DNA of 64,000 nucleotides from an uncultured delta proteobacterium (lineage in GTDB: Bacteria; Desulfobacterota; Desulfobacteria; Desulfobacterales; JAFDCJ01), in the NCBI GenBank assembly GCA_963769935.1, contig CAVYNY010000011.1, positions 288,001 through 352,000 of the forward strand, read 5' to 3'. Positions 38,706 through 47,068 of the stretch are shown piece after piece. Every line of letters begins with the position of its first letter. The stretch's first letter is position 1. The notes beneath the pieces are model-generated. The model did no database searches and was not told the origin of the DNA. It saw only the letters and a program-made list of their open reading frames with translations. Made by a program: the position numbers and the translations under genes.

Positions 38706-41700
38706 TTAGTGCTGAATTGTTTCGACCCTGTCCACCGTCAGGGTAATCGCCCCCCAGTCTTCCTCGACCTTGCCGGTGAGCAGGTAGGGCCGTGCACGGT
38801 CGAGCATGTGGCAGAAGCGGTGGTAGGTTTGGGGGAAAAAAGTGGTCTCCACGATGCCGGTTTCATCCTCGAAGGTTAAAAATTCCATGGGGTCGCCGTG
38901 CTTGGTGGTGACCACCTTGCCGGTGATCAGCCAGCCGGCCAGGCGCACGCGCCGGCCGAGATGACGCGGCAGATCGTCGGCTTTGACGGTGCGCAATTTT
39001 TGCCGAGCGGCGGCATACAGCTCCATGGGGTGCCGGTCGCATAAAAAGCCCAGGACGGCAAACTCGCGCCGCAGCCGATCGTGTTCATCTTCCGGCGGCA
39101 GGAGCGGGAGAAGGTCGGCTGGGGTCTGATCGGCAGCGCCGAACAGGGAGCGGGTTTGGGGAATGGATCCGGCTGATCTGGTTTTGAGCCAGCCGGCCAG
39201 CTGCCACATCAGTGCCGCCCGGTTGCCGCCGGGATTCAATCCATCCAGGGCGCCGCCGTGGATCAGCGCCCGGGCCTCGTCTTCCGCGGGCCGCACGCGG
39301 TCTAAAAAATCGCGCACGCTGTGATAAGGGTCCGGCCGGCGGCGGTCGACAAGGCACTGCTGCGTTTCGGCGGCAAGTCCTTTGATGGAGAGCAGCCCCA
39401 CGCGGACGGCATCCTCCCGGCCGGCCCAGCGAATCTCGCTAAGGTTGACGTCGGGCGGCAAAATTTTAAGGCCCAGGCGCCGGGCTTCGGAGACATAGGC
39501 GAAGGTGCTGTAAAAGCCGCCCTGGTTGCTGATGACCGCCGCCATGAATTCAGCCGGATGGTGGAGCTTGAGATAAGCCGCCTGAAAGGAGACCCGGGCA
39601 TAGGAGGCGCTGTGGGGTTTGCAAAAGGAATAGCCGCTGAAACTCATCATCATGTCCCAGATGGCGGCCACTTGACCATCCGATACTCCCTGGCCCCTGG
39701 CCCCGGCGTAAAAGCGGTTTTTAAAATCCTGCAGCTGGTGCTGCCGGTCTTTTTTGGACATGACCTTGCGCAGGGCATCGGCCTCGGCATGGGAAAAGCC
39801 GGCCAGGGCGACGGCAGCCCGGGACACGTCTTCCTGGTAGACCATGATGCCGAAGGTTTCGTTGAGCACCTCGGTCAACAGCGGATGAATCGGGTCCCAC
39901 TGGCCGCCGTGCAGGCGGCGGATGTATTCGCGAATGAAGTCATTGGCGGCCGGACGAATGATGCTGCTGTGGATCACCAGGTGTTCGAAATCCCCGACCT
40001 TTGATTTTTGCTGCAGCAGCCGCATGGCCGGACTTTCAATGTAAAAGCAGCCCATGGTGCGGCCCTGGGCCAATGACTGCTGGGTGGGCAAATCGTCCTC
40101 GGGTTCCCAGTGGAAATCATCAAATGCTTCCCCGTTGGTCCGCAGGTTGCCGACGGCATCCCGAATGACGCCCAGACTGCGGTTGCCCAGCAGATCGATC
40201 TTGACCAGGCCGGCATCTTCGACGGCGTCTTTTTCCCACTGGACGATGGGCACCCCTTTGGGAGCCCGCTGCAGCGGCACGTATTCGTCAATGGGGCGGG
40301 GGGTAAGGACCACGCCGCCGGGGTGGACGGACAGATAGCGGGGCGTGCCGATGATGCACTGGGCATAGGCCAGGATCTCCGGCCAGGGCGGCGGAAATTC
40401 AAGGGCCTTGGATTCCGGGCGCTTTTGCAGGCCGTCGAGCAGCTCGGATTCCGATTCCCCGGCGTGCCAGAAGCGCGGCAGGCGTTTGGTCACCCGTCCG
40501 ATTTCAGCATCCGTCAGACCGTATACTTTGGCCACTTCCCGGATGGCCATGCGCGGTTGAAACAGGACGTGATTGGCCACCATGGCCGCATGTCCCCGGT
40601 GCTGTTCGAGCACGGATTTGAGCACATCATCGCGTTCGTCCCAGGCAAAATCGACATCGATGTCGGGCGGATCCGTGCGGCCGGGATTCAAAAAGCGCTC
40701 GAAATACAGATTGTGTTTGAGGGGGCAGACATTGGTGATGCCCAGGCAGTATGCCACCAGCGAGGCGGCGCCCGAACCGCGGCCGCAGGTGCGCGGGCTG
40801 CGCCTGACAATGTCGCGCACGATCAGAAAATAGGCGGCAAAGCCCATGTCCGTGATGCTGCGCAGCTCATGCTCCAGTCTTTCGACCACCGCTTCAGACA
40901 GCTCCTGTCCGTAGCGCCGGCGGGCACCGGCATAAGCGGCGCGGCGCAGGCGGCGGGCCGGATTCCGGGCCTCTTCGTTTTTAAAGGGCGGCATGACGAT
41001 GCCGAACTGCGGTCCGCTGAACGTCAGACGTTCGGCAATTTCATGGGTGGCCCGCACGGCTTCCGGCAGGATGGCAAACCGGCGCTCATACTCGACGGGC
41101 GACGCCAGCCAGGCGTCGGCCGGGGCCAGATCGTCGGCCGCCAGTCGCGAAAGGCAGGTATTGCGGTCGATGGCCCGCAGCAGGCGGTGGACGGCCGCAT
41201 CCTGCGGCTGCAGGAAGAAACTGCCCGGTGTTGCCGCCAGCGGGATTCCCAGGTGTCTGGCCGTGCGGCACAGGGCCTGGCTGGGGGCCGGTGGCTTGCG
41301 CGGCAGGGCGGCGGCAACCGTCACCCCGGCCGCATGCCAGGTGCGCAGAAGATCGGCGCTTTGGGTCAGGACCACCAGACCGGTCGCATAATTCGGCAGG
41401 ACCGCCTGCAGATCAAACTCCGCATCCATGTGGCGGCGGGTGAGCAAACGGCAGAGGTTGCGGTAGCCGCCCTCGTCTTCCACCAGGCAGACGGCCCGTT
41501 GTTTGCGTATGGGATCGGTGACCTCCGCGCCGACCATCGGCGTCAGGCCTTCCTGTCGGCAGGTCCGCAAAAAAGGCCACAAACCGTAAAGATTGTCGGT
41601 ATCGGTCAATGCCAGACGGTCATAGCCCAGACGTTTGGCCGCCAGGCAAACCTGCTTGACATAGGCCGTGCCCCACATAAGGGAGTAGCTGGATCGGACG

Positions 41701-41714
41701 GTTAATGGAATCAT
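38706..41714 (-). CDS. dnaE2: Error-prone DNA polymerase III alpha subunit (DnaE2-type)
   Basis: Degenerate PHP domain, GRGSGAASLV, FERFLN, catalytic PPDIDVDF and KIDLLG, YSFCKPHS, C-terminal OB fold; lies in an operon with lexA and a Y-family gene. Confidence 0.9.
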   Translation of the reverse strand: MIPLTVRSSYSLMWGTAYVKQVCLAAKRLGYDRLALTDTDNLYGLWPFLRTCRQEGLTPMVGAEVTDPIRKQRAVCLVEDEGGYRNLCRLLTRRHMDAEFDLQAVLPNYATGLVVLTQSADLLRTWHAAGVTVAAALPRKPPAPSQALCRTARHLGIPLAATPGSFFLQPQDAAVHRLLRAIDRNTCLSRLAADDLAPADAWLASPVEYERRFAILPEAVRATHEIAERLTFSGPQFGIVMPPFKNEEARNPARRLRRAAYAGARRRYGQELSEAVVERLEHELRSITDMGFAAYFLIVRDIVRRSPRTCGRGSGAASLVAYCLGITNVCPLKHNLYFERFLNPGRTDPPDIDVDFAWDERDDVLKSVLEQHRGHAAMVANHVLFQPRMAIREVAKVYGLTDAEIGRVTKRLPRFWHAGESESELLDGLQKRPESKALEFPPPWPEILAYAQCIIGTPRYLSVHPGGVVLTPRPIDEYVPLQRAPKGVPIVQWEKDAVEDAGLVKIDLLGNRSLGVIRDAVGNLRTNGEAFDDFHWEPEDDLPTQQSLAQGRTMGCFYIESPAMRLLQQKSKVGDFEHLVIHSSIIRPAANDFIREYIRRLHGGQWDPIHPLLTEVLNETFGIMVYQEDVSRAAVALAGFSHAEADALRKVMSKKDRQHQLQDFKNRFYAGARGQGVSDGQVAAIWDMMMSFSGYSFCKPHSASYARVSFQAAYLKLHHPAEFMAAVISNQGGFYSTFAYVSEARRLGLKILPPDVNLSEIRWAGREDAVRVGLLSIKGLAAETQQCLVDRRRPDPYHSVRDFLDRVRPAEDEARALIHGGALDGLNPGGNRAALMWQLAGWLKTRSAGSIPQTRSLFGAADQTPADLLPLLPPEDEHDRLRREFAVLGFLCDRHPMELYAAARQKLRTVKADDLPRHLGRRVRLAGWLITGKVVTTKHGDPMEFLTFEDETGIVETTFFPQTYHRFCHMLDRARPYLLTGKVEEDWGAITLTVDRVETIQH

Positions 41715-41721
41715 AGTTCAA

Positions 41722-41868
41722 GTTGGCCCGTTGAGCCCGTTGGCCCGTTGAGCCCGTTGGCCCGTTGAGCCCGTTGAGCCCGTTGAGCCCGTTGGCCCGT
41801 TGAGCCCGTTGAGCCCGTTGGCCCGTTGAGCCCGTTGGCCCGTTGAGCCCGTTGAGCCCGTTGAGCCG
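41722..41868 (+). repeat. Tandem array of 17 units GTTGGCCC / GTTGAGCCC
   Basis: Read directly: A B A B A B B B A B B A B A B B B' (A = 8 bp, B = 9 bp). Confidence 0.97.
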
Positions 41869-41869
41869 G

Positions 41870-42154
41870 CTAACTGGTTTCGTGTTTTTTTAAATACCGA
41901 ATTAAGCCGTCAATTATCTTACGAACTTTTGCGCAGTGATCATAGGTGTTTTGAAATTCAGTCTCTGAAATATAGTTTTGATCTAAGGCGACGTACAAGC
42001 AATTCTGCACCTCGGAACAAGATCGTCTCGAATAGGTTAAAAATCGGATGAACTCTTTGTTCGACTTCGAATCAAATCCTTCGCAGATGTTATTCATTAC
42101 GGAAATAGCGGCGCCGGTTATTTGCCCAGATAGTCTAAAATCATTCGAGAAAGC
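41870..42154 (-). pseudogene. Four-helix-bundle protein (23S rRNA IVP/TIGR02436-like), 5'-truncated
   Basis: AFSNDFRLSGQITGAAISVMNNICEGF...EFIRFLTYSRRSCSEVQNCLYVALDQNYI; the usual first helix is missing. Confidence 0.82.
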
Positions 42155-42193
42155 GGGCCAACCGGCAACGGGCCAACCGGCGAACCAGATTCC

Positions 42194-43372
42194 TTATGCC
42201 GCTAAAGATCGACCGAATCGTACGGCCTCGTTGCCGAACCGCTGTCGGATGCGGTCGATGACGCTGATGAGATTGTCGCGTTTTTCGTTTTGCTTTTGCT
42301 CGACGGCAAACAGCTCCAGCTGGGCCGGCGGAAATGTCAGCCGGTCGCAGATCAGACGCACATGCCGGATGCGGATCCGCCGGGTCCAGGCCAGGCGCAG
42401 GGTGCGCCGGGCCAGTTCGAAAAGTATGAGATCGTTGGCGGTGGCCGGTTTGGCTGCCAGCTGGCGGGCACAGCGCATGCCGTCCGAATAGTCAAGGATG
42501 ACGGCAACCCGGCGGGCGGCGTGCCGCCGCCGGCGCAGCCTGTCACCGGCCTGTTCGACCAGGCCGTACAGGGTGCTTTCCAGAGTGGATTTGTCATTGG
42601 TGTCATTACCGAATTCATGGTCGACCATTATCTTCGGCGGTTTTTGCCCGGCCGGCAGGACGGGAGAAGGATCAATGCCGCGGGCGGCTTCGTATAGAAG
42701 CAGGGCGCGGGCGCCGAAGGGAATCTGCAGCTGCTCCAGACTCAGGGCGGTCAGATGCGACACCCGGCTGAGATTAAATTCCTGCAGCCGCAGCAGATCG
42801 TCGCGTTCGATGCCCGGGACCAGGCCGATCGGCAGCGGCGCCAGAAGCGCTTCTTCTTCGCCGGCACCGACGATGTACTCCCCGTCGGGCTTTACCAGGC
42901 GGGTGGCCACCTTGGCCGTCAGTTTGTTGGGGGCCACCGACCAGATGGGATCCAGGCCGAGATCTTCTTTAACCTGCCGGCGCAACCGCCAGGCGACATC
43001 AATGGGGGGGCCGAAAAGGCGGGCGGTGCCGGTGACATCCAGAAACAGGTGCCCGTCGACTTCCCCGGTTTCAATGAGCGGTGAATACGGCAGCGTCTGC
43101 TTGAGCAGGGTCCGCATGGCGTGCTCGTAGCGGTCCGGGTGGGGCGGCAGGATCCGGACGTCCCGGCACAGGCGCACGGCCCGGCGCAGCGGCATGCCCT
43201 TGCGGATGCCGGTTCGATAGGCTTCTTCGCTCATATCGTAAACGGCGGCCCGGGCCGCTCCCTCGGGGGCGATGATCACCGGCCGCGCTTTGAGCCGGCA
43301 ATCCACGGCCCGCTCCACCGCCACGGCAAAGTCGGCGACATTCAAATGGATAATTGATCGCTCCATGGACAA
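42194..43372 (-). CDS. Catalytically degenerate Y-family polymerase (ImuB-like)
   Basis: HLNVADF in place of HvDmDaF and EVDGHLFLD in place of SIDEayLD; PNKLTAKVA; clamp motif QLELF; C-terminal IDRIRQRFG. Confidence 0.85.
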   Translation of the reverse strand: MSMERSIIHLNVADFAVAVERAVDCRLKARPVIIAPEGAARAAVYDMSEEAYRTGIRKGMPLRRAVRLCRDVRILPPHPDRYEHAMRTLLKQTLPYSPLIETGEVDGHLFLDVTGTARLFGPPIDVAWRLRRQVKEDLGLDPIWSVAPNKLTAKVATRLVKPDGEYIVGAGEEEALLAPLPIGLVPGIERDDLLRLQEFNLSRVSHLTALSLEQLQIPFGARALLLYEAARGIDPSPVLPAGQKPPKIMVDHEFGNDTNDKSTLESTLYGLVEQAGDRLRRRRHAARRVAVILDYSDGMRCARQLAAKPATANDLILFELARRTLRLAWTRRIRIRHVRLICDRLTFPPAQLELFAVEQKQNEKRDNLISVIDRIRQRFGNEAVRFGRSLAA

Positions 43373-43403
43373 TTCTCTAAGTCATCAAGTCAAGCAGAAT
43401 AAG

Positions 43404-43554
43404 GAATGGATTCTATTTTAATTTTTTAATTGGACAGGATTTACAGGATTGTCTGGATTCTGTTTTGGCATTCCCGGTTTCCGGAGGAAACCGTAAAAAA
43501 ATCCTGCTCATCCTGTTGATCCTGTCGGACAAAAAAAATAAAAAGAATCCATTC
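43404..43554. repeat. MITE-like palindromic element (family C)
   Basis: Perfect 11-bp terminal inverted repeat GAATGGATTCT/AGAATCCATTC with internal ACAGGAT/ATCCTG repeats; partial copies near 18472 and 29028. Confidence 0.7.
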
Positions 43555-44401
43555 ATCTTTCCTCTTCAGACACTTCCATTAGTCCTCTTTCTGTCAGCAA
43601 GTTAATCAGCTGCACCGCATTCCTGGGCGCCTGGGCGCGGACGTGGTTGTTGAAGAAAATGAGGCCGCGGTTTGCGTGCCGGGCCATTTTCGTGATCCGG
43701 CCATCCGCCCACTCCCGCAGCTCAGCATCCCCGTAGTCATAGTCGAATTGCTGCTGCATGTTGCCCGAGCGCCAGCCCTTGGCGTTGCGGCCGTGAAAGC
43801 GGATGTAGAAAAGATCGGGGTTGGTGACGATATCGAGCGGAGGGAAAAGTCCCGGTAAATTCGGTTCATCCACTGCTACCAAGGTAGTGCGGCGGCGCTC
43901 CAGTTCGGCAAAGACCCGGTCCGTGGCCCAGGAGGCGTGACGAAACTCCACCGCCAGGGGCAAACCGTCCAACTCGTCCAGCAGGGCGGCCAGATATTGA
44001 CGGTTTTGAGGGGCGCGCCCAAAGGAGGGAGGGAATTGCAGCAAAACGGCCGCCAGTTTTCGGGCCTGCAAAAGCGGAGCGATGCCGTCCCGGTACTGGG
44101 CGGCCTGTCCCCGCCATTGACCGGGATCGATTTCGTGGGTTAATGTGCGGGTCAGTTTGGCGGCAAAGCGAAAACCGGCCGGCGCCTGTTGCTGCATTCG
44201 TTCGAGCGCACTCGCTTTGGGCATTTGATACCAGGTGAAGTTCAACTCGGTGACTGGAAAATTCTGGGCGTAACAGGACAGCATGTTGCCCGATTTTGTC
44301 CCCGGTGGATAAAACCCGGCATCGGTCCATTCCGCATACGAATAGCCGCTCGTGCCGACCCAAAGTTTACAACCACGTATTGGTTCTTTTTTGTTGTCCA
44401 T
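43553..44401 (-). CDS. DUF72 (YecE-like TIM-barrel) protein
   Basis: VGTSGYSY, ELN.TWY, LLQFPPSF, VEFRH.SW, YIRFHGRN and FFNNH..AQAP.NA motifs. Confidence 0.92.
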   Translation of the reverse strand: MDNKKEPIRGCKLWVGTSGYSYAEWTDAGFYPPGTKSGNMLSCYAQNFPVTELNFTWYQMPKASALERMQQQAPAGFRFAAKLTRTLTHEIDPGQWRGQAAQYRDGIAPLLQARKLAAVLLQFPPSFGRAPQNRQYLAALLDELDGLPLAVEFRHASWATDRVFAELERRRTTLVAVDEPNLPGLFPPLDIVTNPDLFYIRFHGRNAKGWRSGNMQQQFDYDYGDAELREWADGRITKMARHANRGLIFFNNHVRAQAPRNAVQLINLLTERGLMEVSEEER

Positions 44402-44436
44402 TGACGTGCTTCAATTTCCGAGATGAACACATAAAA

Positions 44437-44520
44437 AGCTGATAGCTCATAGTCCCGCCGCGGCGAGACTGGTAGTCGAATGATCAATTCCTTTTTGCTA
44501 TGAGCCATGAGCTATGAGCT
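44437..44520. repeat. Inverted heptamer arrays (AGCTCAT / ATGAGCT)
   Basis: AGCTGATAGCTCATAG ... CTATGAGCCATGAGCTATGAGCT. Confidence 0.6.
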
Positions 44521-45151
44521 ATTTTATCCCCTCCGGTCCGCGCTGGATGCCGATGACCTTGCCCTGGATCAATACTTCGCTGAAGCCGTAGCGCATGGGG
44601 TTATATGCGGCATTTTCCGGACGCAGTTCGATGTATTTTTTGCGCAGAAAAAACCGTTTGACGGTGGCTTCCTCTTCGTTGATAAGGGCCACCACAATTT
44701 CACCGTTCCGGGCGTACTGCCGGGGTTCGCAAATCGCCAGATCACCGGTCAGGATCCCGGCATCCTTCATTGAATCGCCCTTGATCTGCAACGCAAAGAG
44801 GTTCTGGCCGCGATAGACGGCGGCGTCCAGCACCGTGCTGCCGTCCCATTCCGTCTGGGCGTACATCGGTAACCCGGCCATAACGCGACCGATGATGGGG
44901 ATCTCCCGCCAACGCTGGGAGGCCGAGGTCTCGCGGGCTCGGTTCAAAAGATAGACGGTACGGCTGTAGCGTCCCTCCCGTTTCAGGTAGCCTTTCTCTT
45001 CCAGCGCCCGAATGATTTGAGCGATGGCGGCGTGGCTGACCCCGATATCTGCAGCCGCCTGGCGCAGGCTGGGAGCCTGTCCGCTGTTTGCGATTTCATG
45101 CTGCAGATAATCTAAAACATGCTTTTGTCTCTCGGTCAGGGCTGATTGCAT
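44519..45151 (-). CDS. lexA: SOS repressor LexA
   Basis: LTERQ...PSLRQ...LEEKGYL wHTH, Ala-Gly cleavage site (GRVMAGLP), catalytic GDSM and TVKR; GGAGG RBS. Confidence 0.95.
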   Translation of the reverse strand: MQSALTERQKHVLDYLQHEIANSGQAPSLRQAAADIGVSHAAIAQIIRALEEKGYLKREGRYSRTVYLLNRARETSASQRWREIPIIGRVMAGLPMYAQTEWDGSTVLDAAVYRGQNLFALQIKGDSMKDAGILTGDLAICEPRQYARNGEIVVALINEEEATVKRFFLRKKYIELRPENAAYNPMRYGFSEVLIQGKVIGIQRGPEGIK

Positions 45152-45287
45152 GAAAACCTCCTTTTGATTGCGGATTTCAGATTTCGGAATGCGGATTCAT
45201 AAAAAGGATAAATGCAATTTTAATTTTTCGATTCCTTCCGCCGAAATACGAGGCGGTCCGGATTCCTGAATTGTTTCCTCTGCCGCC

Positions 45288-45333
45288 AATATAAACGCTC
45301 AATATGTAAATGTCAATGTAAAATTTAATGTAA
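45288..45333 (-). promoter_or_regulatory. Sigma70 promoter of the lexA cassette with overlapping TTACAT direct repeats
   Basis: TTGACA (45311-45316), 17 nt, TATATT (45288-45293) on the minus strand; ATGTAA on the plus strand at 45304, 45316 and 45328. Confidence 0.75.
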
Positions 45334-45379
45334 GGTTTGTATGGGGATGTAAAGGCTTGTGGGTTTGGGGATATCGGGG

Positions 45380-47068
45380 TTAAATCTGCATCTTAGACAG
45401 CCGGTTTTTACCGAACCGCATGGGCAGGATAATGGCCAGGATGCTGAGCATGAAGGCGGCACTGAAGGATCCGCTAATCCACAGCCAGTTTGCCGGGGAA
45501 AGGGTTCGGCCGTGGATATGCGCCATGAAAATATGGTAAACCGGACCGGCTTCTATGAGAATGACGGCACCGATGTAGCCGGCGCACACGATCATGAAGA
45601 TCAGGCCGCCGAAACTGGTCACCGTCTGGGTCGGGTTTTCCGCTTTAAAATCCGGATAGCCCGCACCCAACCCGATACCCATGGCAACAATTCCCGGGAC
45701 GACAAAAAAAACGGTGATGATGGAAAGCACCATCATAAAGGGCGTGACGCTAAGCAGGATGTTGGTGGCGACGATCAGGATTTCCGTAAGTAAAAGCAGC
45801 GGCAAATAGTAGATAAAAAATTTTATCCACAAAAAGGTTTGCAGTGACAGCGGAGATGTCCTGACCAGCCAGAAAGCTTCCCTTTCCATACTGACGGCCG
45901 GATAGGCAAAACGGGCGGATATGGCCGTGAGGACAAAAAGTGCCAGTCCCATATTCAGAAAAGAGAACAGGTTCTGCAGATAGACGGTTTTGATCGGTGA
46001 CTTTTCTATCGGAAGCACTTTGAAATTGTAAACGTATATGACCACCAGAGCAGCGATCAGAAAAAGCTGGGACCATTGGGTCTGATCGCGCAGAAATGTT
46101 TTAATTTCTTTGACGGCAAAGGATTTTACGGGTCCCGGCAGAAAATTGAGGTACTGCCGGCCGGGGTCTCTTTTTTTGAACAGCCTGGCTGCGGCCGTCT
46201 GGGTTTTGGAAAATCCTTTAAAGTAAATTGAATCGGCAACCATGATCAGGAAAAACACAATGGTACCGGCAAAGCTCCAGGCGAGTCCTGTATGCAGCAA
46301 ACCGCGGCCCAACTCTCCTGAAAGACCTGCCCGGATGCTGTCATAGGCCCATGTGCTGGGCAGAATCGGGGATAAAGGGGTTTGCAGGGAGGTGATGTAA
46401 ACCATGACGGTGTCAAATACTTCCGGATCCACCAGCAGCTCCGGCCGTGACAGACGGATGGCCAGATAAATCACGACAAAAAACAGGATACCCAAAAAAA
46501 TGAAAATACTTTTCAGGCGATTGGCAGGAATGACGATAACGGCCAGCATTACCAAAATCGTGCTGACAGCTGACGCATTAATGACAAGCGGCGCCAGAAC
46601 CAACAGGATGTTGGCATAATAAAAGACGCCGGCTCGATAGACGATTCCATAAGACAAAAAGATCGGCAGGGTAAAAATGACAACCATCCAGGCACTTTCA
46701 ACCGTACTGTCCAGCCAGCGTGCAATAAAAATTTTGTAGCTTGCAACCGGCATCGAGTGGACCAGTACCAGGTCCCGGGACAGGTAAAGCCGTGACAGCG
46801 ATGTCAGGATGCTGCTGAAAATTAAAAGGGCATATGCAATAATCAGAATCATTGACAACAGTTTGTAACCGAGAATGTCTCCGATTTCTTCAATGCCTTT
46901 AAAGTATGTCAGAACCCGTACCGCAACGACAAATATCGCGCTCCAGAAGAGCATACCAATAACAGCGAGAAAGCACAGCTTCAGGATTTCGCCGCTCTTG
47001 CCGATGCGGACGCTGCGGTTCATTAAAGGCCAGATTCTGGGTTTTAGCAATGTGAGGATGTCGTTCAT
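45380..47068 (-). CDS. Putative ABC exporter permease
   Basis: Polytopic membrane protein with LY.SRDL..VHSMPV, KEIKTFLRD..QW and SMEREAFWL; follows an ABC ATPase. Confidence 0.85.
   Translation of the reverse strand: MNDILTLLKPRIWPLMNRSVRIGKSGEILKLCFLAVIGMLFWSAIFVVAVRVLTYFKGIEEIGDILGYKLLSMILIIAYALLIFSSILTSLSRLYLSRDLVLVHSMPVASYKIFIARWLDSTVESAWMVVIFTLPIFLSYGIVYRAGVFYYANILLVLAPLVINASAVSTILVMLAVIVIPANRLKSIFIFLGILFFVVIYLAIRLSRPELLVDPEVFDTVMVYITSLQTPLSPILPSTWAYDSIRAGLSGELGRGLLHTGLAWSFAGTIVFFLIMVADSIYFKGFSKTQTAAARLFKKRDPGRQYLNFLPGPVKSFAVKEIKTFLRDQTQWSQLFLIAALVVIYVYNFKVLPIEKSPIKTVYLQNLFSFLNMGLALFVLTAISARFAYPAVSMEREAFWLVRTSPLSLQTFLWIKFFIYYLPLLLLTEILIVATNILLSVTPFMMVLSIITVFFVVPGIVAMGIGLGAGYPDFKAENPTQTVTSFGGLIFMIVCAGYIGAVILIEAGPVYHIFMAHIHGRTLSPANWLWISGSFSAAFMLSILAIILPMRFGKNRLSKMQI

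Follow-up and report, generated by a model that had tools for sequence, protein, structure and literature searches.

LexA represses transcription by promoter occlusion and undergoes Ala-Gly cleavage through a Ser/Lys dyad; to our knowledge, how a symmetric LexA dimer moves to direct-repeat operators is not settled. Among the closest described systems is the LexA box of the Balneolaeota, for which the available portion of PMC7739468 gives the consensus TTACACATATTTTWTACATA with validation by EMSA; the same text has palindromic operators giving way to direct repeats through several independent origins. An alphaproteobacterial direct repeat, GTTC-N7-GTTC, is cited in the accessible part of PMC8565304, which also gives LexA motifs for Bdellovibrio bacteriovorus (TTAC-N3-GTAA) and Geobacter sulfurreducens (GGTT-N10-AACC); paper titles in its reference list indicate that LexA control in both species excludes recA. 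Promoters of ISCR (IS91-like) transposases are under LexA in E. coli through a CTGT-N8-ACAG box supported by EMSA (PMC13393415, available portion), and the lexA-imuA-imuB-dnaE2 mutagenesis cassette is known (PMC3901139, available portion). In the openly accessible literature searched, we found no LexA motif for the Desulfobacterales or Desulfobulbales.

The window analysed here is a stretch of 64,000 nucleotides from an uncultured delta proteobacterium of the Desulfobacterales. Its minus strand carries an operon with the order, from the promoter, lexA (44519..45151), a DUF72 gene (43553..44401; PF01904), a gene for an imuB-like Y-family polymerase homologue (42194..43366) and a dnaE2-like gene for an error-prone DNA polymerase III alpha (38706..41714). 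The last was named from its cassette context, every family score falling below cut-off except that for the polC superfamily. The first catalytic motif of the imuB-like product reads HLNVADF and, judged against the DinB catalytic motif, the protein is probably inactive as a polymerase. Short repeat-rich inserts occupy 43400-43550 and 44420-44520, in intergenic gaps, and 45165-45270, in the lexA leader. Between imuB and dnaE2, at 41720-42190, there is a run of 9-bp tandem repeats with a short reading frame that by eye resembles four-helix-bundle intervening-sequence proteins.

The lexA product scores above the TIGR00498 cut-off, and its gene is the sole full-length lexA found in its own genome. 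The protein carries a DNA-binding domain, an Ala-Gly cleavage site and a Ser/Lys dyad, with Ala92, Gly93, Ser127 and Lys165 invariant in 55 sequences. Its nearest named relatives belong to the Desulfobacterales, and the clade is compact: at E<=1e-30 there are matches in 164 of the order's 301 genomes, some 8 of these via other LexA types, just 4 matches outside the order reach E<=1e-45 in an even sample of 401 phylum genomes, and full-length representatives fall at either >=55% or <=44% identity. The helix-turn-helix and wing are strongly conserved and one residue shorter than in E. coli. An ESM Atlas search returned generic LexA clusters only. The same order also holds a second LexA-like group, about 36% identical and with the same one-residue-short turn (L130, L133, L134, L135, L204), which has its own conserved site over the -35 region, TTGACCTGA-N5-TCAG(G/T), a candidate palindromic operator.

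Upstream of lexA, the minus strand carries TTACAT at 45352-45347, 45333-45328, 45321-45316 and 45309-45304. The last three of these copies, spaced 12 bp apart, straddle the -35 box of the lexA-DUF72-imuB-dnaE2 operon. The -35 hexamer TTGACA (45311..45316, minus strand) shares its first T with the second of the three copies, and the third lies inside the 17-bp spacer leading to the -10 hexamer TATATT (45288..45293, minus strand). The original prediction had named these three repeats, both hexamers and the spacer, and all are present exactly where it put them. The hexamers of this predicted sigma-70-type promoter match consensus at 11 of 12 bases and form the sole promoter-like site in 45100-45500 (shuffles, mean 0.7); array and promoter lie about 135 bp upstream of lexA. 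A fourth copy at 45347 had been claimed as well. It exists (TTTACAT, 45347..45353, minus strand), but at 19 bp it is out of register with the others and its conservation is poor, with TACA at that offset in 5 of 85 anchored promoters and retention in close relatives only. Exact TTACAT-N6-TTACAT pairs occur twice in the window, where chance would give 0.12 even if one mismatch were tolerated, and 4 times in the 8-Mb genome, 2 of them at the lexA promoter array. The perfect triple is found once in the genome, against an expectation of 3.6e-5 that assumes independence and ignores local AT richness.

The half-site was refined to TTTACAT(T) and the dyad to TTTACAT-N5-TTTACAT; the leading T was added after inspecting relatives, the 12-bp TTACAT repeat itself having been proposed from the window alone. 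On the minus strand, half-site 1 (CTTACATT, 45327..45334) lies upstream of the -35 hexamer, half-site 2 (TTTACATT, 45315..45322) overlaps its first bases, and half-site 3 (TTTACATA, 45303..45310) falls in the promoter spacer. When orthologous promoters were aligned on the core formed by a half-site plus TTGAC (85 anchored promoters), TACA was present at the offset of half-site 3 in 72 and at that of half-site 1 in 37, and one base nearer in 11; for half-site 2, a profile anchored on TTGACA gave 71-95% conservation per base at -6 to -1 (n=123). The best -10 lies 17 bp past the -35 in 49 of 73 orthologues with the same layout. A terminator role for the array was considered and rejected, no terminator being found. 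Contigs from RNA libraries cover the operon patchily, one ending at 45266 and another run covering the region upstream; such contigs cannot show transcript starts.

We then asked how widely the repeat recurs. The lexA loci were taken as best hits plus 60 stretches hand-picked from hit lists, a sample in which kin are not independent; after 7 duplicates and 3 partial genes were dropped, loci with at least 250 bp upstream included 136 clade promoters. A TTTACAT pair of period 12 (<=1 mismatch) was found in 120 of these, every one on the sense strand, where shuffles gave a mean of 0.05, and in none of the 57 other lexA upstream regions. Period 11 occurred in 24 clade promoters and period 13 in none, and inverted TTTACAT arrangements reached at most 8 of 136 at any gap. 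Counted by order, with a 90-bp minimum upstream, the dyad precedes 121 of 133 orthologous Desulfobacterales lexA genes; of the 12 promoters that lack it at threshold, some are degenerate, gapped or behind an integrase gene, and some have no explanation. Recurrence at orthologous lexA promoters had been anticipated, and at most of them it is what we found; the count serves largely as an out-of-sample test of the window-derived repeat.

Neither the neighbouring gene nor the promoter layout accounts for this conservation. The array is independent of the upstream gene, 25 of 118 loci having the ABC neighbour seen in the window, and leaders of about 50 to 680 bp separate lexA from a promoter array that is intact throughout. 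Among 121 promoters, 73 have the -35 box between half-sites; in 12 it comes after a half-site and the 3′ copy is weak, in another 12 it stands in place of the 3′ half-site, in 14 the whole box precedes the array, and 10 have some other arrangement. Because the array survives changes of upstream gene and shifts relative to the promoter across these five layout classes, it is more than a -35 box. The orientation bias has an exception at L509 (in G781), where two reversed copies of the direct repeat precede lexA. An integron integrase gene stands directly upstream of lexA, in the same direction, at L445, L446, L504-L507 and L521, and in both G190 and G019 the integrase is in turn preceded by a period-11 TTTACAT pair in reverse orientation, about 1.0-1.3 kb upstream of lexA.

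Other genes of the cassette carry the array when they are separated from lexA. In most of 138 matching genomes imuB follows closely after lexA. Fourteen apparently separated imuB genes were fetched, 8 of which still had DUF72 directly upstream; with G276 and G042 added, 8 separated genes remained. Six of them have an array of their own (G092, G239, G290, G276, G042 and G248), the G276 and G042 cases having first been found through the motif itself, and the two without a site are at a short contig end (G117) and in front of a truncated imuB (G008). In G248 a third array precedes a separated dnaE2. When the window's own genome was scanned with a weight matrix built from relatives, the lexA site ranked first, followed by a triple array immediately before an IS91-like transposase. 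Among 30 transposase loci, 21 had the N-terminus and at least 150 bp upstream and could be scored; a dyad with <=2 mismatches precedes 12 of these, in 6 genomes, at about 100-125 bp, against a background of 11 in 5792 ORF-upstream windows of the own genome. Nine of the 21 have no dyad, four of them in genomes that have the clade LexA. Three further transposase sites (G075, G128, G136) were found through the motif.

The promoter of recA had also been suggested as a place to look for the motif; of 20 recA upstream regions of 1.5 kb, none scores above zero. The exact pattern is found in 147 of the order's 301 genomes, usually one or two times each, and among the non-lexA sites that were fetched, many stand before unrelated genes and are probably background. 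Judged from sequence, such a distribution would fit a small LexA regulon made up of mobile genes and genes for error-prone replication, without recA. Two genomes of family f59, in which no clade lexA was found, have an exact TTTACAT-N5-TTTACAT before a gene that by eye is QueE-like radical SAM (L370, L405), through shared ancestry or chance. At L327:4367-4904 (G000:C20) a weaker dyad, TATACAT-N5-CTTACAT, comes immediately after a broken integron integrase and may be left over from a downstream transposase promoter.

Clade LexAs also occur outside the order, and in an initial set of these the direct repeat was absent. We found the clade LexA in 35 of 151 genomes of a sister order, which is probably the Desulfobulbales since one palindrome family clusters, with 99% support, with a protein bearing the name Desulfobulbus sp. 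Among 41 sister-order promoters, 22 contain AATGTA-N4-TACATT (<=1 mismatch), 4 the direct repeat and 15 neither; often a palindrome over the -35 is accompanied by another near the start. Exact palindromes were matched in 24 of 30 genomes picked from two palindrome families, mostly at lexA. In the four sister-order promoters with a direct repeat, the LexAs group with the direct-repeat proteins, and site type thus follows LexA subtype. Distant, mostly partial transposase homologues were found in 6 of the 30 palindrome-type genomes, and the one that was scored lacks the direct repeat.

The two types of LexA share the core of helix 2, helix 3 and the wing, and the direct-repeat and palindrome groups are about 56-63% identical. 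Residue 41 is Ala in 80% of the former versus Thr or Asn in 86% of the latter. The linker is conserved in the direct-repeat type, with 18 residues in 115 of 119 proteins, and variable in the palindrome type; Trp81 is present in 99 of 119 versus 0 of 22, leaving 20 direct-repeat proteins without it. The site-type labels require 2-3 changes on the trees, and the residue-41 and linker differences are therefore leads. FastTree places the palindrome types at the base, whereas IQ-TREE nests them among the direct-repeat types. AlphaFold models of both types have a normal winged-helix plus S24 layout, with linker pLDDT <50 in both. The most divergent clade member (L146, in G642; 51%) combines an altered recognition helix, SYSNIAH, with the lack of either motif at threshold, and possibly represents a third specificity.

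That the array is a LexA operator in some geometry we consider very likely from the sequence comparisons. For the more specific reading, a direct-repeat operator of head-to-tail TTTACAT(T) half-sites 12 bp apart over the predicted -35, we would put the probability at roughly 0.7. The proposal that it is the operator of this particular LexA gains support from the restriction of the motif to clade promoters and from its presence at cassette genes separated from lexA. LexA bound to half-sites over the -35 region would block sigma-70 polymerase and so repress its own lexA-DUF72-imuB-dnaE2 operon; upon DNA damage, RecA filaments would stimulate LexA self-cleavage at Ala92-Gly93, releasing the operon. 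The window LexA is the presumed binder of the array. We infer that a dimer would span a pair of neighbouring half-sites, one of its DNA-binding domains being reversed, that another dimer may occupy the third half-site, and that the 18-residue linker conserved in direct-repeat proteins could help set this geometry.

An ordinary head-to-head dimer could instead read the same DNA as overlapping degenerate palindromes. The array is nearly 6-bp periodic, and every 16-mer in it that ends in TACATT resembles, with mismatches, AATGTA-N4-TACATT, the very site used by sister-order LexAs (22 of 41 promoters) with an almost identical helix-turn-helix and wing; a single G-to-T substitution converts the sister site to the first part of the array. 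It is this near-identical recognition helix that keeps such a reading alive. Its difficulty lies in the left half. Where the -35 does not form the spacer (91 dyads), T is kept in 85 and A in 75 at or near the palindrome's positions, but the G is missing from all 91, the slot offset by 6 bp keeping a C in 11. The palindrome is present with <=1 mismatch in just 1 of 121 direct-repeat promoters, the degeneracy is one-sided (120 sense against 0 antisense), and the TTTA outside the 16-mer is conserved at both lexA and transposase promoters. We therefore regard degenerate palindromes as unlikely.

Further from the direct-repeat reading, and distinctly improbable, is binding by some other tandem-site regulator, such as a winged-helix response regulator, with the sites at IS91-like elements being transposase-binding end sequences. 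OmpR-type regulators typically bind tandem arrays, the transposase-associated sites do lie at the left end of the IS91-like element, and two genomes (G131 and G128) have transposase sites in the absence of any clade lexA that we could find. Against this, targets are limited to lexA, imuB, dnaE2 and transposases, with few further sites per genome, the site geometry switches with LexA subtype, and other LexA types of the same order have other motifs. Hardly credible at all is that the array is no operator, only -35-like TTTACA hexamers stacked in an AT-rich promoter, or a low-complexity (TTTACA)n tract produced there by slippage. TTTACA does match the -35 consensus at 5 of 6 positions, and a metagenome scan with the dyad recovered mostly simple (TTTACA)n repeats, a clade lexA lying downstream in only 2 of 117 loci. 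Yet in the lexA promoters alternate hexamers are conserved and those between them vary, and the dyad is retained at unrelated genes as well as for LexAs that share as little as 53% identity. With the clade-wide promoter counts and the rarity of the <=2-mismatch dyad in ORF-upstream windows, this largely refutes a non-operator repeat.

If the array is a direct-repeat operator, a broader reading can be offered, tentatively and with less than even confidence: one LexA clade may have switched geometry while keeping its recognition helix and TACATT, the switch being set by the linker and residue 41, and the direct-repeat form may place IS91-like transposases under SOS control in these sediment bacteria. 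The palindrome is known from two sister-order families and the 12-bp head-to-tail triple repeat from the Desulfobacterales. Were the geometry-switch reading true, swapping the linker and residue 41 would convert one specificity into the other. Direct-repeat and palindrome LexAs, with nearly the same helix-turn-helix and wing and a shared half-site, form a near-minimal pair for studying how a repressor changes its binding geometry.

Compared with known systems, the array is closest in kind to the Balneolaeota box as described in the available portion of PMC7739468. Both are direct repeats with a near-identical half-site core (TACAT here, CACAT there) and an AT-rich spacer, and both control lexA and translesion polymerases, a role that is predicted here. 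The Balneolaeota site differs in having ACAT-N7-ACAT at period 11, as read from its consensus and probes, versus 12 here (period 12 in 120 of 136 promoters, period 11 in 24), in being a dyad rather than the usual three copies, and in a regulon that includes recA, which the predicted regulon here does not. The Balneola LexA N-terminal motif is absent from the LexA representatives fetched. The original prediction had put the box forward as a new candidate, and this holds for the 12-bp period and the triple layout; a direct repeat of similar half-sites at 11 bp had already been published for the Balneolaeota (PMC7739468). As given in the accessible texts, the alphaproteobacterial box is likewise a direct repeat, with a different half-site and period 11, and the 12-bp period is off-helical, unlike the 11-bp direct-repeat boxes described in the literature found. 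Bdellovibrio and Geobacter resemble the present case in having a deltaproteobacterial LexA with recA excluded, and Bdellovibrio shares TTAC, but their boxes are palindromic where the array is a direct repeat; TTAC-ATT is followed here by GACA, TATA, AATA or AAAT, and not by GTAA.

The predicted targets also have counterparts. As in the lexA-imuA-imuB-dnaE2 cassette, as far as the available portion of PMC3901139 describes it, lexA heads imuB and dnaE2, and the DUF72 gene occupies the usual place of imuA. As with the ISCR elements in the available portion of PMC13393415, a LexA site overlaps a rolling-circle transposase promoter, here a predicted one and a lineage-specific repeat. The array provides a first candidate SOS box and regulon for the Desulfobacterales and, probably, the Desulfobulbales, comprising the mutagenesis cassette and IS91-like transposases without recA. 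Lineage-specific LexA boxes as such are to be expected; what sets this one apart from those described is its 12-bp period and triple layout, together with its palindromic sister form.
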